Origin: Nitrosomonas europaea
Lineage (GTDB): Bacteria; Pseudomonadota; Gammaproteobacteria; Burkholderiales; Nitrosomonadaceae
Assembly: GCF_900167395.1 (NCBI RefSeq)
Contig: NZ_FUWK01000029.1
Coordinates: 1 to 32,000 of the forward strand
Reading direction: 5' to 3'
Length of the DNA: 32,000 nucleotides
Shown: positions 9,003-32,000 of the stretch, piece by piece
Numbering within the stretch: the first letter of the stretch is position 1
Layout of the letters: each line of letters begins with the position of its first letter
Translations under genes and position numbers: made by a program
Notes under the pieces: model-generated
What the model was told of the DNA's origin: nothing
The model's input: only the letters and a program-made list of their open reading frames with translations
Database searches by the model: none

Positions 9003-10019
9003 ATGAGCGACAGCAATACATCTTCGTTACCCCGTGCAGCTCAGCTCGAGCCTGATGCCGCACCTGCAGTTGCTGTCCTGCAGCAGGCACTGCAATGGCA
9101 GGTCATCTTCTGGTCGGGGGAGGCTACCGATAGAGATCGTATGCGCTGGCAGAGCTGGCTGGCGGCTGATCCGGCACATGCCCGCGCCTGGGCGCAGGTG
9201 CAACGTACCGATGAACAACTGCAAACACTGGCTTCGCCCGCCGCTGAAGTGCTGCGCAGTGCTGATGCCAGGCGATGTAAAGCGCGCCGCACAGTGCTCG
9301 GTATGGCAGGTCTGCTGGCAGGCGCCGGTATTATGGGTTGTGGATTGCGGCAAACAGCGCAATGGCAGATGATGATGGCCGATGACCACACCGGCTATGG
9401 CGAGCGACGTAATATCGAACTTGCCGATGGCACGCAGGTGACGCTCGGCAGTGCCACTGCCATTGATGTGTGCTACAGCGCGCAGGCACGCCAATTGCTG
9501 TTGCGCACGGGTGAGATCTTCATCGTTACAGCGCCAGACAGTGCCGACCGCCCGTTTTTGGTGCAAACCACTCGGGGCAGCGTGCAGGCGCTGGGTACAC
9601 GCTTCAATGTGCGTGAATCGGGTGAGCAAATCCAGGTGGCAGTACAGGATGGTGCAGTCGCTATCCGTCCGGCCGGAATGAATCCGGGTGATGTCGTACG
9701 GCTTGATGCTGGTCAGCAGACGTGTTTCGATCACACCAAAGTCGAAGCAGCCGAGGCATTACAGATCAGTGCGACTGCCTGGACACGCGGTCTGCTGGTG
9801 GCTGAACGCATGCGGCTGGAAGATTTCCTGGTCGAGCTGGGCCGATACCGCAGCGGTGTATTGCGTTGTGACCCGGCAGTCAGGGATCTGATCGTCTCCG
9901 GCGTTTATTCACTGGACGATACTGACCAGAGTCTGCGCCTGCTTGCCCAGGCGCTGCCGGTACAGGTGCAGACAGTTACGCGCTGGTGGACTATCGTCGG
10001 ACCTCGCCCCATGAAATAA
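9003..10019 (+). CDS. fecR: FecR-type transmembrane anti-sigma factor / iron signal sensor
   Basis: It has an N-terminal anti-sigma domain (WQVIFWSGEATDRDRMRWQSWLAADPAHARAWAQV), a single TM segment (VLGMAGLLAGAGIMGCGL), a periplasmic FecR domain (LADGTQVTLGSATAI...VQALGTRFNV) and a C-terminal STN-contacting region. Confidence 0.9.
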   Translation: MSDSNTSSLPRAAQLEPDAAPAVAVLQQALQWQVIFWSGEATDRDRMRWQSWLAADPAHARAWAQVQRTDEQLQTLASPAAEVLRSADARRCKARRTVLGMAGLLAGAGIMGCGLRQTAQWQMMMADDHTGYGERRNIELADGTQVTLGSATAIDVCYSAQARQLLLRTGEIFIVTAPDSADRPFLVQTTRGSVQALGTRFNVRESGEQIQVAVQDGAVAIRPAGMNPGDVVRLDAGQQTCFDHTKVEAAEALQISATAWTRGLLVAERMRLEDFLVELGRYRSGVLRCDPAVRDLIVSGVYSLDDTDQSLRLLAQALPVQVQTVTRWWTIVGPRPMK

Positions 10020-10146
10020 AACAGCTATTCCGCTATCCCACCGAAAAAATTTCGCGTCAACCGTAGCACTTTTCTCATCTCGTATCGGGATACAGGTAAG
10101 GCCCTGGCAAACAGCCGGGACCATCTATTACTGAAGGGAAAAATCT

Positions 10147-12618
10147 ATGCCAATGAGAAACACCAATCTTCCTGCCAACCCGTGCGTCACAGGGACTTGT
10201 CGTTCGCAAGCGCTATTGCGCCAAATCATGCTGCTGGCCTGTCTGTCCATGGCAGCAGCGTTTGTACCCGTGCGGGCGCAGAGCACGACAGCGCCTGTTC
10301 AGCCGCAAGCAAGCCTCCGCTACGATATTCCGGCCGGCACGCTGGATCAGGTGCTGAACCATTTTGCGGCAGATGCCGGCATTACACTCTCCATTGACGG
10401 CGCACTGACTGCGGGTAAGCACAGTTCCGGCCTGTCAGGCAGCTATAGCGTGCCGGACGGGTTGAAGGCACTGCTGGCGGGAACCGGACTGGAGGCGGTT
10501 GCCACCCCTGGTAGCGGCTACGTGATACGCAGGGCGACTGCTGCCACGATAACGACAAGCGGGACCGTGCTGCCAACGGTAACGGTGGCGGGCCACCGAG
10601 CCGCTATTGATGAGGCACCCCCGCTTTACAAGGGTGGCCAGGTAGGCAGTGGTGCACGTATGGGTGTGCTTGGTAATACCGCAGTGATGGATACCCCTTT
10701 CAGCGTTACCAGTTACTCGGCGCAAGTGATCGAGAATAACCAGGCACGCTCGGTGGCAGATATTGCGGCGATGGATCCATCGGTGCGTATGAGCAGTGCT
10801 CGCTCCAATATTAACGAAGACCTCACGATGCGCGGTTTTTCGGTCTCCAGCGCAGATTTCGCGCTGAACGGGCTGTTTGGCCTGACACCTTACTGGCGGG
10901 CACCGCTGGAATCGATAGAACGGGTAGAAGTGATCAAAGGCCCGTCTGCCGCATTGTTTGGTATGGCGCCTGGCAGCAGTGTGGGCGGCGTCGTTAATCT
11001 GGTGCCCAAGCGCGCTGGGGATACGCCGCTGATGCGGATCACGACCGGCATAACTTCAAATTCCCTGTTTGGTGGCCATGCCGATATTGGTGGCCGTTTC
11101 GGGCCGGATAATGTATTCGGTGCACGCCTGAATGTCATGCACCGCGGTGGCAATACGACGATCGATGGTCAGTCTACCTATCAGAGCCTGGGGTCGCTGG
11201 GGTTGGATTTTCGTCAGCGTTCACTGCGAGCTTCTCTCGATCTGTTGTGGCAGCAGGAACGCATCAATAACGTGGTACGCCAGTTCCAGCTGAGTCCCGG
11301 TTTGACAGCGGTCCCGCGTGTGCCGGACAACACCACGGCCTATCCTGGTTATGGCTGGACTGATGGTCGCAATATCTCGTGGCTGTTCAAAGCGGAGTAT
11401 GACATCAGCCAGGCTGTTACCGCATACGCGAGCTACGGCATGCGTAAACTTAACTGGGGCGCCATCGCTGCCAATCCGATCCTTCTGAATACGGCGGGTG
11501 ACTATTCCTACGCCGGAGGCTGGCAGCGTATGCCTACTCGTACTCAGTCACTGGAAGCAGGTATGCGCGGCGTATTTGCTACCGGGCCTGTCAGCCATAG
11601 TACTGCACTTGGTTTTACCTGGCTTGACCAGTCGCAAGAGCTGGGCTTTTATACCGGCCTTCCTCCCGGTATTTCCAATTTGTATACCGGCCAATTGTTT
11701 TCGACTCCCTCCATTGAGGGTATCAATAACTTGGCGCGTCCCTACCTCGATACTCAGCTGACCAGTGTGGTACTGGCCGATACGATGTCATTCTGGGATG
11801 ACAGGTTGTTGGCGTCACTTGGCCTACGTTATCAGAAGGTCGAGGGACAAAGCTACAATTTTGCTACGGGTATGGCCAGTGGCCCGCGCTACGATAAGAG
11901 CGCAATAACGCCTGTCGTTGGCATCGTGTTCAAACTGCGCCCGTCATTGTCGCTGTATGCAAGTTATATCGAAGGATTGTCGAAAGGGGATACAGCACCG
12001 ATCAGCGCGGCGATTACTAATCCGGGAGAGATTATGTCTCCGTATAAATCCAAGCAGAAAGAAATCGGTGTCAAGTTCGATCAGGGTAATTTCATGACAA
12101 CACTGAGCCTGTTCGAATTGACCCGGCCCAGTGCGGGTATATCCGGCACGACATTCGGCGTGTTTGGTGAACAGCGTAATCGCGGTGTGGAGGCAACCAT
12201 TGCCGGCGAAGTTGTGCGCGGTGTACGCGTGTTGGGTGGCGCCAGCTATATAGATGCAGTGTTGTCCAAATCGGTGTCAGCAATGCTGAAGGGCAATAAA
12301 GCTATCGGGGTCCCCGAGTGGCAGGCCAATCTGGGAGCAGAGTGGGATGTTGGCTTCCTGCCGGGGCTAACGCTGACAGGCAGAATGGTCTACACCGCCA
12401 AGACTTTCGTCGATGCGACCAACACTCTGAAGATTCCGGATTGGGTGCGCTTCGATGCAGGCGTGCGCTACGCTGCGCGTATCGTCTCCAGGCCGGTTAT
12501 GTTCCGCTTGAATGTCGAAAACCTGTTGGACAAGGATTACTTCGGTGCGGCCACGGCAGGCTATCTCTTCATCGGTACGCCGCGTACCATAAATTTCTCT
12601 GCTTCCATCGATTTGTAA
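10147..12618 (+). CDS. TonB-dependent siderophore receptor/transducer with N-terminal signalling (STN) domain
   Basis: It has a signal peptide, an STN domain (YDIPAGTLDQVLNHFAADAGITLSIDGALT...GLKALLAGTGLEA), a plug (ERVEVIKGPSAALFG) and a long beta-barrel. The gene sits directly after fecIR. Confidence 0.9.
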   Translation: MPMRNTNLPANPCVTGTCRSQALLRQIMLLACLSMAAAFVPVRAQSTTAPVQPQASLRYDIPAGTLDQVLNHFAADAGITLSIDGALTAGKHSSGLSGSYSVPDGLKALLAGTGLEAVATPGSGYVIRRATAATITTSGTVLPTVTVAGHRAAIDEAPPLYKGGQVGSGARMGVLGNTAVMDTPFSVTSYSAQVIENNQARSVADIAAMDPSVRMSSARSNINEDLTMRGFSVSSADFALNGLFGLTPYWRAPLESIERVEVIKGPSAALFGMAPGSSVGGVVNLVPKRAGDTPLMRITTGITSNSLFGGHADIGGRFGPDNVFGARLNVMHRGGNTTIDGQSTYQSLGSLGLDFRQRSLRASLDLLWQQERINNVVRQFQLSPGLTAVPRVPDNTTAYPGYGWTDGRNISWLFKAEYDISQAVTAYASYGMRKLNWGAIAANPILLNTAGDYSYAGGWQRMPTRTQSLEAGMRGVFATGPVSHSTALGFTWLDQSQELGFYTGLPPGISNLYTGQLFSTPSIEGINNLARPYLDTQLTSVVLADTMSFWDDRLLASLGLRYQKVEGQSYNFATGMASGPRYDKSAITPVVGIVFKLRPSLSLYASYIEGLSKGDTAPISAAITNPGEIMSPYKSKQKEIGVKFDQGNFMTTLSLFELTRPSAGISGTTFGVFGEQRNRGVEATIAGEVVRGVRVLGGASYIDAVLSKSVSAMLKGNKAIGVPEWQANLGAEWDVGFLPGLTLTGRMVYTAKTFVDATNTLKIPDWVRFDAGVRYAARIVSRPVMFRLNVENLLDKDYFGAATAGYLFIGTPRTINFSASIDL

Positions 12619-12628
12619 GGAGATACTG

Positions 12629-13819
12629 ATGTCGTTACAGTCCTGGGCCTGGATTCACAAATGGAGCAGTATTGTTTGCACCTTGTTCATGTTGCTGTTG
12701 TGTCTGACGGGTCTGCCGCTGATTTTTCATGAAGAAATCGAGCATCTTAGCGGGGTGGTGGAGGCACCCCCCATGCCCAAAGGCACGCCGGATGCCAGTA
12801 TGGATCGTATCGCACAGGTGGTGCTCGCACGCCGTCCTGGCGAAGTCATCCGCTTCATGTTCTGGGATCAGGAGGAGCATCCGGATCTGACCTATGTATC
12901 GATGGCCAGTCGGGTCGATGCCCCGCCGGAGGAAAGTAATTCAGTGGTGATCGATTCCCGTACTGCCAAAGTGCTGGACGAACCCAAGACCAATGAAGGC
13001 TTCATGTATGTGATGCTCAGGCTGCATGTAGACATGTTTGCCGATCTGCCCGGCACACTGTTTCTGGGTTTCATGGGCTTGCTGATGGTGGTGGCCATCG
13101 TATCGGGCGTCGTGCTGTACTATCCATTCATGCAGCGGCTGAAGTTCGGCGTGCTGCGCATGCAGCGCAGTGCACGAATCAAATGGCTGGATATACATAA
13201 TCTGCTGGGTATCGTGACCGTGGTCTGGCTGACAGTAGTGGGTCTGACCGGCTCCATCAACACGCTGGACCGCATTATCCTGAGCCTGTGGCAAATGGAC
13301 CAGATGGCTGAAATGACCGCACCCTTTAAAGATCTGCCACCCGTCACACAGCCTGCACATCTTGAAGCATCGCTGCGTGCTGCTCGCGCGGCGGCGCCGG
13401 ACATGGAGGTACGACTGGTCGCTTTCCCGGGTACGATGTTTTCCAGCCCGCATCACTATACCTTTTTCCTGAGGGGCAACACGCCGATCACATCGCGGCT
13501 GCTGAAGCCGGCGCTGGTCGATGCCAGCAACGGTGAGCTGACCGATTCACGCGATATGCCCTGGTATGTGAAGACATTGTTTTTGTCACAACCATTGCAC
13601 TTTGGTGACTACGGCGGCCTGCCGCTGAAAATTCTGTGGGCAGTGCTCGACCTCATCGCCATCGTCGTGTTGGCTAGTGGCCTGTATCTCTGGTTGCGTA
13701 AACCCAAGACGACGGCAGCATCGGTTTCCAAAGCGGACGATGCTGTACTGCCTCTCGATGACGACCATACAGCACCGAACAACGCGATGGTCTATATCAA
13801 TGAGAATAAGGATAGATGA
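12629..13819 (+). CDS. PepSY-associated TM-helix protein (PiuB-like, putative periplasmic ferric-siderophore reductase component)
   Basis: AAGGAG Shine-Dalgarno. The N-terminus IHKWSSIVCTLFMLLLCLTGLPLIFHEEI is the typical PepSY_TM start, there are four predicted TM segments, and the position after a TonB receptor is conserved. Confidence 0.8.
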   Translation: MSLQSWAWIHKWSSIVCTLFMLLLCLTGLPLIFHEEIEHLSGVVEAPPMPKGTPDASMDRIAQVVLARRPGEVIRFMFWDQEEHPDLTYVSMASRVDAPPEESNSVVIDSRTAKVLDEPKTNEGFMYVMLRLHVDMFADLPGTLFLGFMGLLMVVAIVSGVVLYYPFMQRLKFGVLRMQRSARIKWLDIHNLLGIVTVVWLTVVGLTGSINTLDRIILSLWQMDQMAEMTAPFKDLPPVTQPAHLEASLRAARAAAPDMEVRLVAFPGTMFSSPHHYTFFLRGNTPITSRLLKPALVDASNGELTDSRDMPWYVKTLFLSQPLHFGDYGGLPLKILWAVLDLIAIVVLASGLYLWLRKPKTTAASVSKADDAVLPLDDDHTAPNNAMVYINENKDR

Positions 13820-18801: not shown

Positions 18802-21800
18802 TCACAGATCGGGTTGTTGCAGCACCCATTCGTGCAGTGATACGTAGTCGGTTTTTCCGGTAGCGAGCAGCGGTAGCTTGTCGATGTACAGGATGCTCTT
18901 CGGTATTCCCAGTTCTCCCAGGCCATTCTGGTTGAAATAAGCAACGATTTCGCTGCGGTCCGCCGGTTGGCGGGTTGTGATCAGAACGAGCTGTTCGCCT
19001 TTTCTGGCATCGGGAATCTGAATGACAGCATGGCTGTAGTCCGGCCACAGCTGATGGATCGATTCTTCTATGGCCGGCAGTGAAATCATTTCCCCGCCTA
19101 TTTTGGCAAACCGCTTGGCGCGCCCTTTGATGAAAACGTAGCCTTCTTCGTTGATTTCAACGATGTCGCCGGTATCATGCCAGCCCTCGACAGGGGGTAT
19201 GACCATCCCGGGGTTGGCTGCCAGATAGTAGCCCAGCATCACATTCGGGCCGGATACCAGTAGTTTGCCCCCTTGCGTGATTCCCGGAACAGGTTCCAGT
19301 TTGCTGGAAATGCCGGGTAGCAGGCGGCCGACTGATCCGGGATGGTTGTGCATGGGGGTGTTCAAACTGAGGATCGGAGCAGTTTCAGTTGTGCCATAGC
19401 CTTCGAAGATACGCACACCAAAATTCTCCGACCACAGTCTGCGTGTGCTTTCCCGCAATTTTTCGGCGCCGGCAAATGCGTAACGAACGCTGTAAAAATC
19501 GTAGGCGTTGGCATGGCGCGCATAACCGGCGAGGAAAGTATCAGTACCGAACAGCAGGTTGCATTGGTGTCGTAGATCAGCTCGGGAATGACGCGGTAAT
19601 GCAGAGGAGACGGGTACAGAAAGACCCGCATACCGGACAGTACCGGCAGCAGCATGCCGCCTGTCAATCCAAAGGAATGGAAGAGGGGCAGTGCATTGAA
19701 TACCAGGTCAGTCGGGCCGAAATCGATCCGGGCGGATACCTGGAAACGATTGGCCTGCAGGTTGGTATGGCTGAGCACCACGCCTTTGGGTACGTCTTCC
19801 GATCCGGAAGTGAACAGGACGACTGCCGGTGCATCCGGATTACGCCGGGAATGGGTATAGCGATAACTGATTCCCGGCAGCAGGCTTGCTACCAGCCCTG
19901 CCAGTTTGTGCCACCAGTGCACCTGATGTTTCAGATCTTCCAGATAGATCAGTGTGATCTGCTGTGCTTTCAGACTGTCGGCCAGTCCGGTCAGTTTGGC
20001 GGCTTCGATGAATCTGCGTGCAGTGATGATGGTCCGGATCTGTGCTACCTGGCAGGCTGTCATGAGATTTCTGGGGCTGACCGAAAAATTTAGGAGGGCA
20101 GGTACACGTCCGAAAGCCTGCAAGGCAAAAAAACTGATCACGCTGCTCACCATGTTGGGCAGCATGATTCCCACGTTTTCCTGCGTGTGGGTATAGCGGC
20201 GCAGAACAATACCCAGGATGAAGCTGCGTGTGATCAGTTGAGAATAGTTCAATGGGTTGCGTTCGACATCTTCCGCGATGACGTGCTTTCTGCCGTGCGT
20301 GGCCGCAGCATCGAGCAGTGACTGAAACAGAGTTTGCCGCAGGACATTGCTCTGAAAAATCGTTGTGGTCATGATGTCGTACAGTTTCAGGCCGGCAGCG
20401 CGGCGACGGCGTTTGCCACGGATCGAATCCGGCAGATCGAAGCTTTCCGGCGGCATGACGGTTACGGTGATCCGCGGGAACCAGTGTATCCTCACCTTCC
20501 CTTTCAGTCTGGAGAAGAGCGTGTATTGCGGGCCTGAAAGGCTTACCGGCAACAGTTTTGCCCCGGCCTTATCCGCGATCATGGCCGGGCCTTCGTAGAT
20601 TTTCATGAGTGACCCGGTCAATGTCAGCCGGCCTTCAGGGAAAATCACCACCCTGTCACCGTTTCTGACGCGTTCGATCAGCAGACGGGTGGACAAAGGA
20701 TTGGTCGGGTCAAGCGCAATGGTGTCCGCCAGAAACAGGAAGGGCCGTACCCACCATTTGCGGGCAATACTGGTGTTGATGGCGAAGCACAGGCGTTCGG
20801 GAAAGCATACGCTCAGCAGTGTGGCATCCAGGAACGACAGGTGATTGGCGACGATCAGCACTTTTTCTCCTGCCTGCCGATAATGTTCCAGCCCTCTGAT
20901 TTTCAGGCGATAGAACGTATGGAATCCCCACTGCAGAATGGATCTGGCCAGTTCATACGGCAACAGTCCCGCGATATAAACCGCAACCAGGCCATTTAAC
21001 AGAGCGAGGGTGAGAAAGACTTCAGAAACAGTGAAATCCAATGCCAGCATTACGCTGATACCCGCTGCGGAAACCACCATGAACAGGGCATTCATAATGT
21101 TGTTGGCGGCAATGGCGCGCGAACGGTGGGAGGGTTTCGTATAGTTTTGCACGATGGCATAGAGCGGCACGATGTAGAGGCCGCCGCAGATCGAGATGGC
21201 CAGCAGATCCAGCAAAATGCGCCAGTGGGCGAATGATTCCAGGAAATTCAGCACGCCGATGAGTGTTCCATTCGCTGCAGGTGTGAATGATGTACTGGCA
21301 AAATACAGATCGATGGTGAAGATCGTCATGCCCAGTACGCCTAAAGGAACATAAGTTGCGGCCACTTCACCTTTGAGCAGTTTGTCGCACAGCAGCGCAC
21401 CGATACCGATTCCCACCGAAAAGAGTGTCAGGAACAGCGTAACCACCTGTTCATTTCCACCAATGATTTCTTTGGCGAAGGTGGGAAATTGTGACAGAAA
21501 TGTCGCGCCAAACAGCCAGAACCACGAGACTCCGAGAATGGCGTGAAACACCGTGGTGTTCTCACGTGCCTGCCGGATGAGGGTGCGCGTTTCTTCAAGC
21601 ACATGCCAGTTGACGATCGTATCTGCTGCTGCCGGGCGGACCGGGGGAATGAACAGACTGGACAGCCAGCCGGCCAGCGCTATCCCGATCGTTATGCCGG
21701 ATACGATCGCCCCTCCCTGCTCGGCCAGAATGAGCAACCCGCCTATGATCGTCCCCAGCAGAATGGCAATGAATGTTCCGGCACTGACCAGTGCATTGCC

Positions 21801-22235
21801 GCCGATCAGCTCATCTTCACGCAACTGGTCCGGCAGGATGCTGTATTTCAATGGCCCGAAGAAAGCGGACTGGGCGCCCATCAGAAACAGAATCATCATG
21901 AGCAGTATGACGCTATCCAGATAAAACCCCGCCGCCGCGCCTCCCATCAGAATGATTTCGACGAATTTGACGTGGCGGATCAGCCGTGCCTTATCCCATT
22001 TATCCGCCAGCTGGCCGGCAGTAGCGGAAAAGATGAAAAACGGCAGGATGAAAATACCGGCCGCCAGCGTGACCATGATCTGCGGGCTCAGGCCCGCGTT
22101 GTCCATGGTGGTGTAGGTAATCAGAATGACCAGCGCATTCTTGAAAACATTGTCATTGAATGCACCCAGAAACTGGGTAACGAAAAAGGGTAAAAAGCGT
22201 CTGCTCGAAAGCAGCTTCCATTGACTTGGGTGCAT
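18802..22235 (-). pseudogene. aas: Tri-domain fusion: LplT-like MFS lysophospholipid transporter + PlsC-type acyltransferase + Aas acyl-ACP synthetase (AMP-binding), with a 1 nt frameshift near 19556-19560
   Basis: The MFS N-terminus is FLPFFVTQFLGAFNDNVFK. Acyltransferase motifs are NHLSFLD and FPEGR. AMP-binding motifs are LFTSGSEDVPKGVVLSH, then after the shift EGYGTTETAP, WHDTGD and GRAKRFAKIGGEMISL. The frame changes at AAT GCA ACC (C)TG CTG TTC GGT; restoring one C gives LLFGTDTFLAGYARHANAYDFYSVRYAFAGAEKLRESTRR. Confidence 0.85.
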
Positions 22236-26593: not shown

Positions 26594-26641
26594 GGCTGGT
26601 TCACTTTAAAATTAAAAAATACAGGTGACCAGCCTTTTTTA
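26594..26641 (+). terminator. Rho-independent terminator after nrdB
   Basis: GGCTGGT(T)CAC ... GTGACCAGCC forms the stem and is followed by TTTTTTATTTT. Confidence 0.7.
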
Positions 26642-26687
26642 TTTTCAGAAAATCAATTATGCGAGCGAACCGTTCATTTTATTCAGG

Positions 26688-28073
26688 ATGAAGACAAAAT
26701 CGAATACCTCACTAGTATTGATTGCCGCAGTAGTATTGGCTTCTCTCTCTGTTACGGTGCAAGCCGGCAGAACTTTAGAAAAAAATATAAGTATCACTGT
26801 ACTGGATACGAGACAGTATCAGGTACCACCACACAAGCAGCAGGATGATCTATGGATGCGCGTACGAGCCGGATTTTCCCTGGCGAACATTCAAAGCCAG
26901 GAAGTACGGCAGCACGAAAGCAATTTCAGTAAAAATCAGCGATTCATAGATCATATTGTTGGACGTAGTCAGCGTTATCTGTTTTACATCATCGAAGAAG
27001 TGGAACGTCGGCGCATGCCGGCTGAGATTGCGCTGCTGCCGATCATCGAGAGCGAGTTTGATCCGGATGCTTACTCTCACAGGCATGCTGCGGGGTTGTG
27101 GCAGTTTGTTCCCTCGACGGCAAAAGCGTTCGGGCTGGAGCAGAACTGGTGGCATGACGAACGGCGCGATATCATCGCGGCTACCCAGGCTGCGCTGGAT
27201 TATCTGCAGATGCTCTACAAAATGTTTGGAAACTGGAAGCTGGCACTGGCTGCTTACAACTGGGGACAGGGATCACTGAAGAAAGTGATCGACGAAGGTC
27301 ATGGAGGTAATAAATCTGTCAACTACCAGGAAATCGGGCTTCCGGCTGAAACCAGAAACTATATTTCCAAGCTGATCGCCATCAGAAATATCATTGCCAA
27401 TCCTCGCCGCTATGGCATCAAGCTGAAGCCCATTTCAAACCGGCCTTATTTCGAACAGATCACGATCACCCAGCAGATCGATGTACAACTGGCCGCTCGG
27501 CTTGCCGGAATTTCAGAAAGCGAATTCAATGCGTTGAATCCGGCCTATCACAGACCCCTCATCAAGGCCGAAGATTCTCCACGGACACTGTTGCTGCCCG
27601 TTACCAAAGTCAAAACTTTCGTGGACAACCTCGAAAATTATGACAAGTCACTGGTGTCGTGGCGAATTTACCAGATTGAGCAAACGGAAACCTTGCGCGA
27701 CTTATCCAGCCGGTATCGTATCCCGGTTGCCCGGCTGGCTGAGATCAATGGCATTTCTGAACGTGCTACTCTGAAAAAAGGCCAGATATTGCTGGTGCCA
27801 CGTGACGGCAGCAGTGCAAGAGAAATGACCTATCTTGCACACTATCAGCTCAAACAACCGGCACGACCGGCTACGAGGCGCTCTCAATCATCGGAAGAAC
27901 GCATCGTTTATACCGTCAAAAAGGGTGATACGCTCCACGCTATCGCCAAACGCTACGGTATCGATATCAAAACGATCCGTTTATGGAACAAGGGAAGTGA
28001 TCAGCTTTCCATCGGGCAAAAGCTTACACTCAAGCTGACATCACCCGCCTTCAGCAGCCCTTATTCTTCCTGA
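26688..28073 (+). CDS. mltD: Membrane-bound lytic murein transglycosylase D-like protein (SLT domain + LysM repeats)
   Basis: Signal/lipoprotein-like N-terminus MKTKSNTSLVLIAAVVLASLSVTVQA. The SLT catalytic block is LLPIIESEFDPDAYSHRHAAGLWQFVPSTA ... AYNWGQG. Two C-terminal LysM motifs are present (YQIEQTETLRDLSSRYRIPVARLAEINGI and YTVKKGDTLHAIAKRYGIDIKTIRLWN). The start at 26688 was chosen because 26625 lies inside the nrdB terminator. Confidence 0.88.
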   Translation: MKTKSNTSLVLIAAVVLASLSVTVQAGRTLEKNISITVLDTRQYQVPPHKQQDDLWMRVRAGFSLANIQSQEVRQHESNFSKNQRFIDHIVGRSQRYLFYIIEEVERRRMPAEIALLPIIESEFDPDAYSHRHAAGLWQFVPSTAKAFGLEQNWWHDERRDIIAATQAALDYLQMLYKMFGNWKLALAAYNWGQGSLKKVIDEGHGGNKSVNYQEIGLPAETRNYISKLIAIRNIIANPRRYGIKLKPISNRPYFEQITITQQIDVQLAARLAGISESEFNALNPAYHRPLIKAEDSPRTLLLPVTKVKTFVDNLENYDKSLVSWRIYQIEQTETLRDLSSRYRIPVARLAEINGISERATLKKGQILLVPRDGSSAREMTYLAHYQLKQPARPATRRSQSSEERIVYTVKKGDTLHAIAKRYGIDIKTIRLWNKGSDQLSIGQKLTLKLTSPAFSSPYSS

Positions 28074-31000
28074 ACGATCAGCAGCATCTGGCCGGAAAAT
28101 ACATAATCACCCTGTCTGCAGCTGATCTGCTTCACGATCCCGCTGACCGGTGCACTCAGGGTGATTTCCATTTTCATGGATTCGATGATGATGACCGGAT
28201 CTCCGGCATTGACCAGTTGTCTGGTTTCGATCAGCAGTTTCCATACAGTACCGGTCACATCTGAACTGATGGCGTATGCTCCGTCGGGTAAATCAGGTGC
28301 ATTTTGCATACCGGGTTTATCAAGCACGCCTTCACCCTCATCGCTGATACTGTTTTCTTCCTGTACGTTCCCGATCTTCCAGCGCTCGCGTTCAGCCTCA
28401 AAAGCCTTTTGCTGACGGGTTTTGAATGCTTGAATACTGTCTGCATGCTGATGCAGGAATGCATGATAGTTGCGCAGACTGAAAACGGTATCTTCGGTAT
28501 GAAGTGTAAAACGCCCGGTGATAAAGTCGTGGCGTAACTCAAGCAGCTCCTGTTCAGAAACAGGGTAAAACCTGATCTGATCAAAAAAGCGCAGCAGCCA
28601 GGGTTTACCGGCGGTAAAGTCCCGAGTCTGACGGTAACGATTCCACATCTGCACTGTTCTTCCGACAAACTGATATCCTCCGGGACCTTCCATACCATAA
28701 ATACAGAGATAGGCTCCTCCTATTCCGACTGCATTTTCGGGTGTCCAGGTGCGTGCCGGGTTGTATTTGGTGGTGACCAGCCGATGGCGCGGATCGATCG
28801 GCGTGGCCACCGGGGCGCCCAGGTAGACATCTCCCAGCCCCATGACCAGATAGCTGGCATCGAAAATGATACGTTTGACCTCATCGATACTGTCCAGTCC
28901 GTTGATACGCCGGATGAATTCGATGTTGCTCGGGCACCAGGGTGCATCCGGCCGGACTGACTGCATATATTTTTCGATGGCAAGTTTTGTGGCAGCGTCA
29001 TCCCAGGAAAGGGGTAAATGCACGATACGCGAAGGCATTTCCATATCGTCGCTTGCCGGTAAATCCTTCTCGGCGGTAATGAGTTTATTCAGGAGATGGT
29101 CACGATCCAGAAGCCGCGAATCGAAATGTATCTGCAAAGAGCGAATGCCCGGTGTCATGTCGAGAATTCCGGGCAGATCGCCTTTTTCAACACAGTGCTG
29201 CAGCCAGGCCATCAGGGCATGTGCGCGAAAATGCAGTGCGATATCGAGTACCGCTTCGCCATACTCGATCAGCAGATATTTATCCCCGGATTGTCGGTAA
29301 ACCACTTGTACCTGCCCGTTATTTGCCGGAATCCGATGCAGTACAGGATCACTCGGCTCAACCAGGGAAGCAGGAATATCGGGTGGTACGCGAGTGAAGG
29401 AATCCAGCTGCTGGATCATCTTGTCCTGTTGCTTTTCCAGCTTCAGCGCCTGTTCCGCTGTGAGCGGGTGAAAACGCACGCTATCACCAGGTTTGAGCTG
29501 ACCGGTTTTCCATAATTCCGCCTGTACGATCACAGCAGGACAGACAAATCCTCCCAGGCTGGGGCCATCCGGGCCAAGGATGATGGGCATATCACCGGTA
29601 AAATCGATCGCACCGACCGCATAGGGATTGTCATGGATGTTGGAGGGGTGCAGGCCGGCTTCACCTCCGTCTTTGCGTGCCCATTGTGGTTTGGGGCCGA
29701 TCAGGCGTATACCGGTACGGCTGGAATTGTGATGCACCTTCCAGTCGGTGGTAAAGAATTCATCGATGTCAGCCCCGGTAAAGAAATCCGGTGCACCATG
29801 CGGACCATACAGGACTCCGATTTCCCACCGGCTGGTGTAGTGGGGAATGTTTTCGGAGGGCAATATGCTTGGCTCAGTATCTTCTGCTGGCAGGATATGC
29901 AGCACATCCCCGGTGCACAGCGCCCGTCCGGCATGCCCGCCGAACTGCCCCAGTGTAAAAGTGGAGCGGCTGCCCAAATAATCCGGTACCTGAATCCCAC
30001 CCTTGATGGCCAGGCAGGATCGGCTGCCAAACTGACGGATTTTACCGAATCGTAACAGCGAACCTGCTTTGATGAAGTGAGATCGCCACTGTTCCAGGGG
30101 GGCACCATCCAGCCAGACATCAATGGGTGCTCCACATACTGCAATCAGACTGTTGCAGTTGAATCTCAACGTTGGCCCGGCCAGCGTGATTTCCAATCCC
30201 GCCGAGTCATCGGGGTTTCCAACCAGATGATTGGCCAGACGAAAAGCCAGACTGTCCATCGGACCGGATGGAGGTACTCCTACGTTCCAATAGCCTGTTC
30301 TGCCCGGGTAATCTTGCACTGTCGTCTGTACACCGGCGTTGAGTACATCCAGGGTATGCGGTTGGTAGTGAAACCCGGAAAGGAATTGGGTGCTGACCTG
30401 CCCGCTGCGGAATACCGTTCCGGATAATACCTGCCTGAGATAATCCAGATTGGTTTCAATGCCGTAGAGCGTGGTTTTGTCTAATGCGGCGATCAAACGG
30501 TCGATGGCCTGATCACGATTGCTGGCGTGAACGATGATCTTAGCGAGCATTGGGTCATAGAAGGCCGATACTTCACAACCCGCGTCCACCCAGGTTTCAA
30601 TCCGTGCAGTTTCCGGAAATTCGACAGCGCTCAGCAAACCACTGGCCGGCTGAAAATTCTTGGCTGGATTTTCCGCATACACACGAGCCTGTATGGAAGC
30701 TCCCTGCAGTTGAATGGTAAATGATTCCAGTGGCGGTAAAGCATCGGCACCCAGCAGCACCATCCATTCGACCAGATCAATGCCGGTCACCATCTCGGTG
30801 ACGCCATGTTCCACCTGCAGGCGGGTATTGACTTCCAGAAAATAAAACCGATCGACCGAGGGGTCGTAGACATATTCCACTGTGCCGGCAGATCGGTATT
30901 GAACTGATTCTCCCAGGCGTATGGCTGTTTCCTGTAACGCGTTACGGGTTGCTGGCGACAGACCCGGTGCTGGTGTTTCCTCGATCACTTTCTGGTTGCG

Positions 31001-31696
31001 CCGCTGCATGGAACAATCACGTTCTTCTAATGCAATCACTTTTCCACGGCCGTCGCCGAAAATCTGTACTTCGATATGGCGAGCCTGGTCGATGTATTTT
31101 TCCAGGAACAAGCCGGCATTACTGAAATTACTTTGTGCCAGGTTTTTGACAGACTCATAGGCATCAATCAGCTCTTGCCGGTTGCGGCACAAGCGCATAC
31201 CGATCCCCCCCCCTCCTGCCGTACTTTTGAGCATGACTGGGTAACCGATCCGGTGTGCTTCCTCGCAGGCGGTTTCGAGGTGTTCCAATAATCCGGTACC
31301 CGGCAGCATCGGCGCGTCGAGTTGCTGTGCGAGCGCACGGGCAGTATGTTTCAGACCGAAAGTGCGTATCTGTTCAGGAGTGGGGCCCAGAAAACAAATC
31401 CCTTCTGCGGCACATTGCTCGGCAAATGAAGCATTTTCACTGAGGAATCCGTACCCCGGGTGGATTGCCTGAGCACCGGTGCGGTGTGCAACTTCCAGTA
31501 TTTTATCGGCACGCAAATAACTTTCGCTGGCAAGTCCATCGCCGATACAAATACTGTCATCAGCATCCAGCACATGCCGTGATAGCGCGTCAGCTTTCGT
31601 AAAAACAGCCACACTCCCGATGCCCATCCGATGCAAAGTACGGATAACACGGCAGGCAATGGCGCCCCGATTGGCGATCAGAACTTTTGTAAACAT
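28061..31696 (-). CDS. Urea carboxylase-family biotin enzyme, probably a guanidine carboxylase given the riboswitch
   Basis: It has an N-terminal biotin carboxylase/ATP-grasp domain (MFTKVLIANRGAIACRVIRT..., GGGGIGMRL), central KipA/KipI-like (allophanate hydrolase subunit 2/1) domains, and a C-terminal biotinyl domain with IIIESMKMEI. The 1211 aa length is typical. Confidence 0.9.
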   Translation of the reverse strand: MFTKVLIANRGAIACRVIRTLHRMGIGSVAVFTKADALSRHVLDADDSICIGDGLASESYLRADKILEVAHRTGAQAIHPGYGFLSENASFAEQCAAEGICFLGPTPEQIRTFGLKHTARALAQQLDAPMLPGTGLLEHLETACEEAHRIGYPVMLKSTAGGGGIGMRLCRNRQELIDAYESVKNLAQSNFSNAGLFLEKYIDQARHIEVQIFGDGRGKVIALEERDCSMQRRNQKVIEETPAPGLSPATRNALQETAIRLGESVQYRSAGTVEYVYDPSVDRFYFLEVNTRLQVEHGVTEMVTGIDLVEWMVLLGADALPPLESFTIQLQGASIQARVYAENPAKNFQPASGLLSAVEFPETARIETWVDAGCEVSAFYDPMLAKIIVHASNRDQAIDRLIAALDKTTLYGIETNLDYLRQVLSGTVFRSGQVSTQFLSGFHYQPHTLDVLNAGVQTTVQDYPGRTGYWNVGVPPSGPMDSLAFRLANHLVGNPDDSAGLEITLAGPTLRFNCNSLIAVCGAPIDVWLDGAPLEQWRSHFIKAGSLLRFGKIRQFGSRSCLAIKGGIQVPDYLGSRSTFTLGQFGGHAGRALCTGDVLHILPAEDTEPSILPSENIPHYTSRWEIGVLYGPHGAPDFFTGADIDEFFTTDWKVHHNSSRTGIRLIGPKPQWARKDGGEAGLHPSNIHDNPYAVGAIDFTGDMPIILGPDGPSLGGFVCPAVIVQAELWKTGQLKPGDSVRFHPLTAEQALKLEKQQDKMIQQLDSFTRVPPDIPASLVEPSDPVLHRIPANNGQVQVVYRQSGDKYLLIEYGEAVLDIALHFRAHALMAWLQHCVEKGDLPGILDMTPGIRSLQIHFDSRLLDRDHLLNKLITAEKDLPASDDMEMPSRIVHLPLSWDDAATKLAIEKYMQSVRPDAPWCPSNIEFIRRINGLDSIDEVKRIIFDASYLVMGLGDVYLGAPVATPIDPRHRLVTTKYNPARTWTPENAVGIGGAYLCIYGMEGPGGYQFVGRTVQMWNRYRQTRDFTAGKPWLLRFFDQIRFYPVSEQELLELRHDFITGRFTLHTEDTVFSLRNYHAFLHQHADSIQAFKTRQQKAFEAERERWKIGNVQEENSISDEGEGVLDKPGMQNAPDLPDGAYAISSDVTGTVWKLLIETRQLVNAGDPVIIIESMKMEITLSAPVSGIVKQISCRQGDYVFSGQMLLIVQEE

Positions 31697-31955
31697 AAAT
31701 TCCCCTTACTGTGCTACCTGATCAAGCAGGCCATATTGTGATACATGCTGACTGTGCCAGCGGAAACGAATACAGATTTTTTAAAGTCGATGGAAAATAC
31801 AGATCTTCGCTTCCCGTAGAGGGTGGGCCGTGGGCGGGGAATACAGGAAACGTGGTGTAAAGCCGGAGATAGAAGCAGGTAAGCAGATAGTACATATAAC
31901 GAATCTCCAGGAGTCAGGAAATGACAGAAATCAATAATGCATTGGCATTATGTAA

Positions 31956-32000
31956 CCTCCCGGGCTTTTATCCCTCCGTGGAGCTTCGTATGACGAAGCC
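31956..32000 (-). promoter_or_regulatory. Guanidine-I (ykkC) riboswitch aptamer, 3' half only (the 5' half lies beyond the window end)
   Basis: The minus-strand RNA reads GGCUUCGUCAUACGAAGCUCCACGGAGGGAUAAAAGCCCGGGAGG. It has a 7 bp hairpin followed by ACGGAGGGAUAAAAGCCCGGGAG, which matches the remembered invariant ykkC segment ACGGCGGGAUAAAAGCCCGGGAGA. It lies upstream of a urea carboxylase-family gene, the classic genomic context. Confidence 0.72.

Follow-up and report, generated by a model that had tools for sequence, protein, structure and literature searches.

The window analysed here, a 32,000-nucleotide (nt) stretch of the Nitrosomonas europaea contig NZ_FUWK01000029.1, ends inside a Guanidine-I (ykkC subtype 1) riboswitch aptamer, which lies on the minus strand upstream of a gene for a guanidine carboxylase. 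From the end of the aptamer to the carboxylase AUG runs a leader of 258 nt, which holds a Shine-Dalgarno (SD) sequence and AUG opening a 57-codon open reading frame (ORF), a pyrimidine-rich tract and a conserved block just before the carboxylase. With moderate confidence, we propose that the aptamer would act as a translational ON switch gating this leader ORF, which in turn would relay control to the carboxylase, either by blocking Rho or by translational coupling. The direct target of the riboswitch appears to be the start of the short ORF and not the start codon of the carboxylase. An exact match of the carboxylase protein assigns the window to N. europaea ATCC 19718 (AL954747.1; locus L002 of our comparison), from which the sequence beyond the window end was taken and in which a window position x corresponds to x = 41697 minus the L002 position. 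The features of the locus are, in window coordinates:

28061..31696, minus strand: guanidine carboxylase gene, 1211 amino acids (aa), annotated as urea carboxylase, TIGR02712 match
31697..31749, minus strand: conserved distal block, identity 0.70-0.89 against 0.50-0.78 at 4-fold degenerate sites of the carboxylase
31707-31702, minus strand: SD of the carboxylase, AAGGGG, within the distal block and 3' of the distal hairpin
31730-31717, minus strand: distal hairpin CCUG-CUUGAU-CAGG, with the stop of the leader ORF in its loop
31722..31895, minus strand: leader ORF, 57 codons, MYYLLTCFYLRLY...WPA*, with the UGA stop at 31724-31722
31816..31893, minus strand: pyrimidine-rich, G-poor tract of 78 nt with 42% C, 13% G and a composition like that of a Rho-loading (rut) site
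31893..31913, minus strand: translation-initiation region, CUCC-U-GGAG (SD 31908-31905), AUUCGUUAU, AUG at 31895-31893
31934..31951, minus strand: platform hairpin AUAAUGC-CAAU-GCAUUAU, the top of a long anti-aptamer hairpin in relatives
31955..31980, minus strand: aptamer P3 (C..G, GGG/CCC) and the conserved tail GAGGU, all consensus positions matching
31989-31980, minus strand: predicted anti-SD strand, the P2 3' arm plus CC, ACGAAGCUCC, predicted to pair with the downstream start region
31982..32000, minus strand: aptamer helix P2, GGCUUCGU-CAU-ACGAAGCU, from the aptamer structure line
31955..32000, minus strand: 3' part of the Guanidine-I aptamer, RF00442 model positions 59-107, 37.6 bits (97.2 with the flank)
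32058-32001 (window-equivalent; L002 9639-9696): missing 5' part of the aptamer, 58 nt

Scanned alone at the Rfam gathering score, the window yields no match, because the aptamer is cut by its edge. A permissive cmscan of 31500-32000 returns a single match, RF00442 (Guanidine-I) at 31955-32000(-), with an E of 2.9e-5; it covers the last 46 nt of the window, reaches only the 3' part of the 107-position model and carries a flag for truncation on its 5' side. After extension into the flank, the full aptamer is found at L002 9639-9742 (window 32058-31955), matching model positions 1-107 with 97.2 bits (E 3e-18) against a curated gathering score of 63 bits. The minus strand at the window end reads GGCUUCGUCAUACGAAGCUCCACGGAGGGAUAAAAGCCCGGGAGGU, and the complete element carries the conserved cores CUAGGGUUCCG, GGUCCGAGAG and ACGGAGGGAUAAAAGCCCGGGAG and the helices P1, P1a, P1b, P2 and P3; comparison of the two N. 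europaea copies with those of 13 relatives shows that P1, P1b and P2 vary in sequence yet stay paired. A first-pass annotation, made from the letters of the window alone, was correct in reading the window end as a truncated guanidine-I aptamer that precedes a carboxylase gene of an ammonia oxidiser. The extension past 32000 and the RF00442 scan that it had proposed gave the complete aptamer above the gathering score, and both 5' motifs whose absence it had named as the sign of a false call, CUAGGGUUCCG and GGUCCGAGAG, appear in the flank. The strings that it had quoted were all found at their minus-strand coordinates when checked against the window sequence, namely the P2 hairpin (32000-31982), ACGGAGGGAUAAAAGCCCGGGAGG ending at 31956, the AU hairpin (31951-31934), CCGGGAG (31963-31957), CUCCUGG (31913-31907), AUUCCCC (31842-31836), GGGGAAU (31705-31699) and the ATG at 31696. 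The element is a genuine Guanidine-I riboswitch aptamer of N. europaea, already catalogued, and from its sequence and by analogy it is expected to bind guanidinium and to respond with ligand-dependent activation. When the entire 1.2-kb intergenic region was searched against Rfam at E <= 1, no second known RNA family was detected in the leader; besides two guanidine-I aptamers the search gave only a chance-level match to PYLIS_3.

The 1211-aa product matches the TIGR02712 urea carboxylase model at equivalog level (2022 bits, cut-off 1304). Palatinszky et al. reported that guanidine carboxylases are told from urea carboxylases by an Asp in place of the Asn at residue 1330 of the Kluyveromyces lactis enzyme, together with a conserved catalytic Asp (PMC11410670). 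In the N. europaea carboxylase Asp698 stands opposite that Asn (3va7 chain index 737, residue 1330), and the aspartate of the GLGD motif is kept (D956); by our count the second signature position given in that paper is off by one. By this signature the protein is a member of the urea-carboxylase family of the guanidine type. The pairing of riboswitch and guanidine carboxylase in betaproteobacterial ammonia oxidisers is already published, and we add nothing there, since the same study screened all ammonia-oxidiser genomes with RF00442 and reported the guanidine carboxylase pathway genes in 135 of 145 genomes of betaproteobacterial ammonia oxidisers (PMC11410670). At its 3' end the carboxylase gene overlaps a convergent SLT/LysM lytic transglycosylase ORF (26625-28073, plus strand) by 13 nt (28061-28073), leaving no space for a terminator between them.

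A second full Guanidine-I aptamer lies about 220 nt past the window end on the opposite strand (L002 9421-9319 (-), 95.5 bits). It sits 268 nt upstream of an APC permease gene, which is followed by two DUF1989 (CgdA/B) genes and then by a gene for a 780-aa protein with carboxyltransferase and BCCP domains; the RF00442 aptamers here accordingly stand upstream of guanidine genes on both sides, the carboxylase on one and the permease with CgdAB on the other. The two aptamers are separated by a 217-nt spacer, which holds the sole promoter-like sites of the region in back-to-back orientation, and the site scan found no promoter-like (sigma-70-like) or terminator-like site inside either leader. Other Nitrosomonas have a single unit, riboswitch-permease-cgdA-cgdB-carboxylase (L009, L010, L011, L087, L092, L099 and L107), whereas the split two-riboswitch layout with a carboxylase leader of 222-267 nt is common to the N. 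europaea lineage, comprising HPC101, SJ624 and metagenomic contigs on which the encoded carboxylase shares 86-99% identity with the N. europaea enzyme.

Two side observations concern this locus. The 780-aa protein (L002 3677-6019 (-)) is a carboxylase paralogue, 62% identical to residues 448-1209, with CT_A_B, CT_C_D and biotinyl domains and without the biotin carboxylase domain; its gene stands directly after cgdB, at the place where other Nitrosomonas have the full-length carboxylase, and the same is seen in L090, L100, L106 and L108. The two N. europaea aptamers have an identical 42-nt P1a/P1b core (CUAGGGUUCCGGCUUUCCCAGGGAAAGUGACUGGUCCGAGAG; L002 9650-9691 and 9410-9369), while their P1 and P2 differ by paired changes. 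In L090 both copies carry that contig's own P1b variant, and in L106 the copies do not share one. This pattern suggests either gene conversion between the inverted copies or repeated duplication.

The first-pass annotation had called the leader unusually long, and comparison bears this out. In 15 aptamers from 13 loci, the first start codon preceded by an SD lies 55-77 nt after the aptamer, the only exception being the permease-side copy of N. europaea (+33), as against the 258 nt that separate the aptamer from the carboxylase. An SD-preceded AUG is present at the usual distance in the carboxylase leader as well: the motif cuGGAGAUUCGUUAUAUG occupies window positions 31910-31893, 60 nt after the aptamer, and the same motif (GGAGACUUCGUUAUG, GGAGACUUGUUAUG) is where the permease gene begins in L010 and L011. 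In the form GGAGAyUyGUUAUG it is kept in all 10 distinct leaders of the N. europaea type. The conservation of the SD and AUG, and the use of the same site as a real gene start in L010 and L011, are indirect pointers to translation of the leader ORF. Across the 10 leaders this ORF has 22-58 codons; its stop lies 25 nt before the carboxylase AUG in N. europaea and 25-34 nt before it in eight of the ten. Neither this start site and its ORF, nor the complementarity of the start region to the P2 arm, the pyrimidine-rich tract and the second, divergent riboswitch described here, had figured in the first-pass annotation.

Partition-function folding of the aptamer with the platform predicts that the SD of the leader ORF pairs with the CUCC that follows the P2 3' arm (p >= 0.8 in nine of ten leaders), and that the helix runs on through AUUCGU:ACGAAG, reaching the AUG in several sequences. 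Since it would pair with the P2 3' arm, the start region mimics the P2 5' arm. The complementarity follows the differences between lineages, as in L012 (CUGAGAUUCC with GGAGUCGCAG) and L010 (ACGAGGUUCC with GGAGACUUCGU). Among 26 distinct pairs of aptamer and start region, cognate duplexes of P2 arm and start region have a mean energy of -13.35 kcal/mol compared with -10.6 kcal/mol for non-cognate ones, and none of 10,000 permutations did as well; with other taxa only, that is, outside Nitrosomonas, the values are -10.5 and -7.2 kcal/mol (p = 0.007). From these models we infer that the helix between the P2 arm and the start region would sequester both the SD and the AUG of the leader ORF. This prediction also recasts another element of the first-pass annotation, which had pointed to a pairing of CCGGGAG with CUCCUGG: the latter is a real element, the GG of which forms the first half of the leader-ORF SD, but our model pairs it with the CUCC/GGAG of the aptamer and not with CCGGGAG.

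Downstream of the AUG the leader is distinguished by its composition. The (C-G)/78 of the pyrimidine-rich tract, 0.295, ranks within the top 0.01% when every 78-mer on either strand of the window is counted, although composition by itself is no proof of Rho loading. From the AUG onward all ten leaders are 69-81% pyrimidine (background tail <= 0.4%), the excess of C over G being strong in nine of them, and this richness persists even where identity to N. europaea is near the level of 4-fold degenerate sites. The platform (leader positions 1-59) and the distal block (206-258) are clearly more conserved than those sites in the carboxylase. As a candidate in its own right, a single large structured RNA spanning the leader was rejected: the whole leader folds no better than its shuffles (z = -0.14).

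The permease side repeats the arrangement with a different leader, the two N. europaea leaders being unrelated when aligned, outside the aptamer and GGGAGGUUA. There too an ORF follows the aptamer, of 71-85 codons, with a conserved (V/M)EKLS start that is kept in L090 and L106. In L002 it has 81 codons, begins 33 nt after the aptamer with the SD GGGAG and a GUG, and ends 10 nt beyond the start of the permease AUG, as it does in L106, with the same overlap in L104; the predicted partner of its SD is the P3 3' strand CCCGGGAG. Judged from these sequences, the geometry expected of translational coupling is plainer on the permease side than on the carboxylase side.

These elements can be assembled into the following sequence of events. 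Without guanidine, the P2 3' arm and the adjoining CUCC would pair with the region from the SD to the AUG of the leader ORF and mask it. With guanidine, the aptamer, which is transcribed first, would lock; P2 would then remain paired, nothing more than a weak local hairpin would form in the start region, and the leader ORF could be translated. Ribosomes on the ORF would then cover the C-rich, G-poor tract and prevent Rho from loading and terminating transcription, and those stopping a short way before the carboxylase AUG could help initiation there. The net outcome would be that guanidine raises both the mRNA level and the translation of the carboxylase. The first-pass annotation had supposed layered control; more than one layer is indeed probable, but the layers that we infer, gating of a start site and a relay, differ from those it had named.

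Published expression data fit co-regulation of the two units at the mRNA level. Infection of N. europaea by phage Nir1 induced exactly the five genes behind both riboswitches 30- to 80-fold; the authors held pyrimidine salvage likelier and named guanidine only as an alternative (PMC13356812). The position of these genes behind guanidine riboswitches suggests that guanidine, or a mimic of it, accumulates in phage-infected cells. Under standard growth the urea carboxylase orthologues were undetectable in the proteome (PMC5960693).

Several observations weigh against the proposed relay. The stop of the leader ORF varies in position: it precedes the carboxylase AUG by 84 nt in L102 and by 132 nt in L090. 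The peptide of the ORF is not conserved, with frameshifts in L102, L090 and L106. Its length is not significant against dinucleotide shuffles (P = 0.07-0.33) and stops are rare in all three frames, so that the ORF could be a by-product of the pyrimidine-rich composition. L106 shows a weak C-over-G excess (0.154, background tail 3.4%), located at another place in its leader (position 176), and the permease-side leader has none. Within Nitrosomonas only, the difference between cognate and non-cognate duplexes is small (-14.39 against -13.86 kcal/mol, p = 0.036). In equilibrium folding the OFF helix is the more stable by about 18.6 kcal/mol; when the whole aptamer is enforced the SD is still covered by a weak local AUUUCC:GGAGAU hairpin, and in silico models of the ligand-bound state, with aptamer helices either blocked or enforced, did not release it. 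Switching would therefore have to be kinetic, and secondary-structure thermodynamics are unable to demonstrate it. A transcription factor acting on the divergent promoters explains the co-induction of the five genes equally well, and the model as a whole draws on comparative and predictive evidence only.

The non-conserved peptide and the unremarkable length of the ORF also fit the idea that the leader is a relic, in which the riboswitch and about 60 nt of platform were copied from a permease-type operon and joined to the carboxylase, the extra 200 nt and the ORF being debris. Control would then come from degradation of the untranslated leader by RNase E or from some other effect on transcript fate, with no specific role for Rho or coupling. 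The homology of the gated start to permease starts favours this, as does the middle of the leader, which evolves at a nearly neutral rate in the most distant comparisons (identity 0.58-0.62 against 0.50-0.57 at 4-fold sites); a tblastn search of the permease against the leader found no leftover permease coding sequence. Debris would not be expected to keep its SD and AUG in ten of ten lineages, to hold both the platform and the distal block well above the conservation of 4-fold sites, or to retain a pyrimidine-rich composition that outlasts sequence identity, and a leader ORF is found behind the permease-side riboswitch and in L009, L093 and L104 as well. We consider a relic unlikely.

Guanidine-I riboswitches are usually described as transcriptional ON switches with a terminator (PMC12186494), and the first-pass annotation had offered a transcriptional layer built on the AU hairpin followed by a U-rich stretch. 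In its strongest form, this explanation holds that the AU hairpin, extended by GGAGGUUA:UGAUUUCU, and the U-rich stretch together form a weak intrinsic terminator in competition with the aptamer tail, and that what remains of the leader is spacer. The hairpin is real, since its position is conserved with changed sequences: it is formed by GUAAUGUA/UACAUUAU in L009 and by GCGA/UCGC in L012, and SJ624 has a G.U in place of an A-U. In relatives this position caps a long CCGGGAG...CUCUCGG hairpin, followed in several (L011, L012, L019, L027 and L091) by a U-run, and the extended hairpin is present in the minimum-free-energy fold of N. europaea. The usual terminator platform, a GC-rich stem overlapping the aptamer 3' strand and then a U-run, is nevertheless not what N. 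europaea has. The GC-rich base CCGGGAG:CUCUCGG is lost, leaving a weak stem base with four wobble pairs and no U-run directly after it, and the strand is degenerate in HPC101, SJ624, L090 and L106. The terminator scan detected no intrinsic terminator in the leader. Given this decayed base and the negative scan, the hairpin stands as a conserved element with no support as a terminator, and purely transcriptional control is improbable.

Beside this hairpin, the aptamer tail GGGAGGU is followed by a 7-nt spacer and an AUG in all leaders of the Nitrosomonas type (GUG in SJ624). In N. europaea this AUG gives a 5-codon mini-ORF, MPMHY*, inside the AU hairpin (31949-31932, minus strand), and the length of the ORF varies from 3 to 67 codons elsewhere. 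Although it resembles a start site, the sequence is probably just a hairpin arm.

Sequestration of the carboxylase SD, for which the first-pass annotation had invoked pairing of AUUCCCC with GGGGAAU, was likewise tried as a candidate and rejected. The pairing is no better than chance and is predicted in N. europaea only; among orthologues the predicted partner of this SD shifts between leader positions 116-119, 71-75, 68-73 and 54-71. Nor is the SD hidden in comparison with shuffles: it is more accessible than with shuffled upstream sequence in seven of eight leaders tested (0.31-0.46 against 0.15-0.28), and about equally accessible in L090 (0.17 against 0.19).

That the leader ORF encodes a functional small hydrophobic protein co-regulated with the carboxylase is very improbable, despite its conserved start, the similarity of its first 20 or so residues (MYYLL.CFYFRLYT.FPVF) in six close relatives and the frame-keeping indels among N. 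europaea, HPC101 and SJ624 (18 nt, 27 nt and 1+5 nt). L102 is frameshifted with a carboxylase that is 94% identical, L090 has only 22 codons, the sequence of L106 is unrelated, and neither leader ORF has a Pfam match. This frame is no poorer in stops than the other two, and neither these counts nor the length against shuffles gave evidence of coding selection. Just as hard to credit is a decoupled riboswitch, with the aptamer controlling the short ORF only, or nothing, and the carboxylase promoter lying inside the leader, for although the distance from aptamer to gene is long and the distal block could hold promoter elements, there is no sigma-70-like site between aptamer and ATG, the carboxylase and the operon that follows the other riboswitch are induced together, and the enzyme is undetectable in the proteome under standard growth (PMC5960693).

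Elsewhere in the window, a gene coding for an Aas-like protein with MFS, acyltransferase and AMP-binding parts (18802-22235, minus strand) is divided into two ORFs of 957 and 218 aa that overlap by about 100 nt. The Logan assembly L006 has one 1144-aa product (9801-13235), and two NCBI assemblies, the reference included (L001, L002), have no gene called in the region. From its sequence it is likely a frameshift or a pseudogene in this strain.

Returning to the gated leader ORF, the closest points of comparison are other Guanidine-I (RF00442) operons, namely those of Nitrosospira multiformis and Pseudomonas syringae (PMC11410670) and of L009-L011. N. europaea agrees with them at every conserved aptamer position, in the associated genes (APC permease, CgdAB and guanidine carboxylase) and in the ON response to be expected. 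It departs from the usual form in that, where others have a terminator or the start of the first gene within about 55-77 nt, it has a non-conserved ORF of 57 codons and places the enzyme gene at 258 nt, and in that the operon is split into two divergent units with one aptamer each.

Functionally, the nearest parallels come from Mycobacterium tuberculosis, in which a B12 riboswitch controls an upstream ORF (uORF) before ppe2 (PMC11260477), and the pe20 Mbox controls the uORF rv1805A through a translational platform and Rho-dependent termination (PMC12810186). In each case the translational platform acts on a uORF and the downstream genes follow its translation via Rho, coupling or both, a relay that in N. 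europaea would be the same. The aptamer class, the ligand and the phylum differ, the mycobacterial systems are OFF switches whereas an ON switch is expected here, and the Mbox uORF peptide is highly conserved, unlike that of the N. europaea leader ORF. Moreover, the mycobacterial systems were demonstrated by experiment, and the present one is predicted from sequence comparison and modelling. In the Salmonella mgtA leader a Mg2+ riboswitch is combined with the mgtL ORF and Rho, and the Escherichia coli ribB and thiM riboswitches tie their control of translation to termination by Rho. The likeness to these is that an untranslated, C-rich leader would be open to Rho whenever the riboswitch blocks ribosomes; in ribB and thiM, however, the blocked start is that of the structural gene itself, whereas in N. 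europaea protection of the candidate Rho-loading tract would fall to a separate leader ORF. A literature search of incomplete coverage found no report of a riboswitch-uORF relay for guanidine-I or for Nitrosomonas. It is the anatomy of the leader that appears to be new, the riboswitch itself being already known.

The arrangement extends beyond the N. europaea lineage. Among the loci compared here, a gated SD and AUG opens an ORF of 20-85 codons with no conserved peptide in both leaders of that lineage and in L009, L093 and L104, which are of the Nitrosomonas type, and likewise in L012 (Burkholderiales), L017 (Moraxellaceae), L028 (Alcanivoracaceae) and L041 (Bradyrhizobiaceae). Its stop often falls at the start of the next gene or no more than about 35 nt from it. 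Five of these gated ORFs lie as follows, in the coordinates of their own loci:

L012, 742-807
L017, 800-862
L028, 872-937
L041, 2311-2430
L104, minus strand, +55 to +210 after the aptamer

All five start 55-77 nt after the aptamer and have 20-51 codons and no conserved peptide. In L012, L017 and L028 the ORF has 20-21 codons and directly adjoins the next gene, with ATGA overlaps in the last two. It is tentatively possible, if somewhat doubtful, that guanidine-I riboswitches often act via short relay ORFs and not directly on the first structural gene. Our own covariance model, run over 81 loci, recovered no aptamers beyond those of the regular-expression set, and in the same 81-locus search most carboxylase homologues at 53-60% identity had no aptamer within 4 kb.

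If this generalisation is true, guanidine-I would include a widespread, undescribed type of expression platform that combines translational gating with coupling and Rho. Confirmation in N. europaea would extend the logic of riboswitch, uORF and Rho, so far shown in mycobacteria, to another riboswitch class and another phylum. For the organism itself, the comparative data indicate that both halves of the split guanidine-degradation locus are built with a translational platform aimed at a leader ORF. This would, if confirmed, help to account for the tight co-regulation of a system that is undetectable in standard culture and induced 30- to 80-fold by phage, and it may offer a handle for asking when a model nitrifier meets guanidine.

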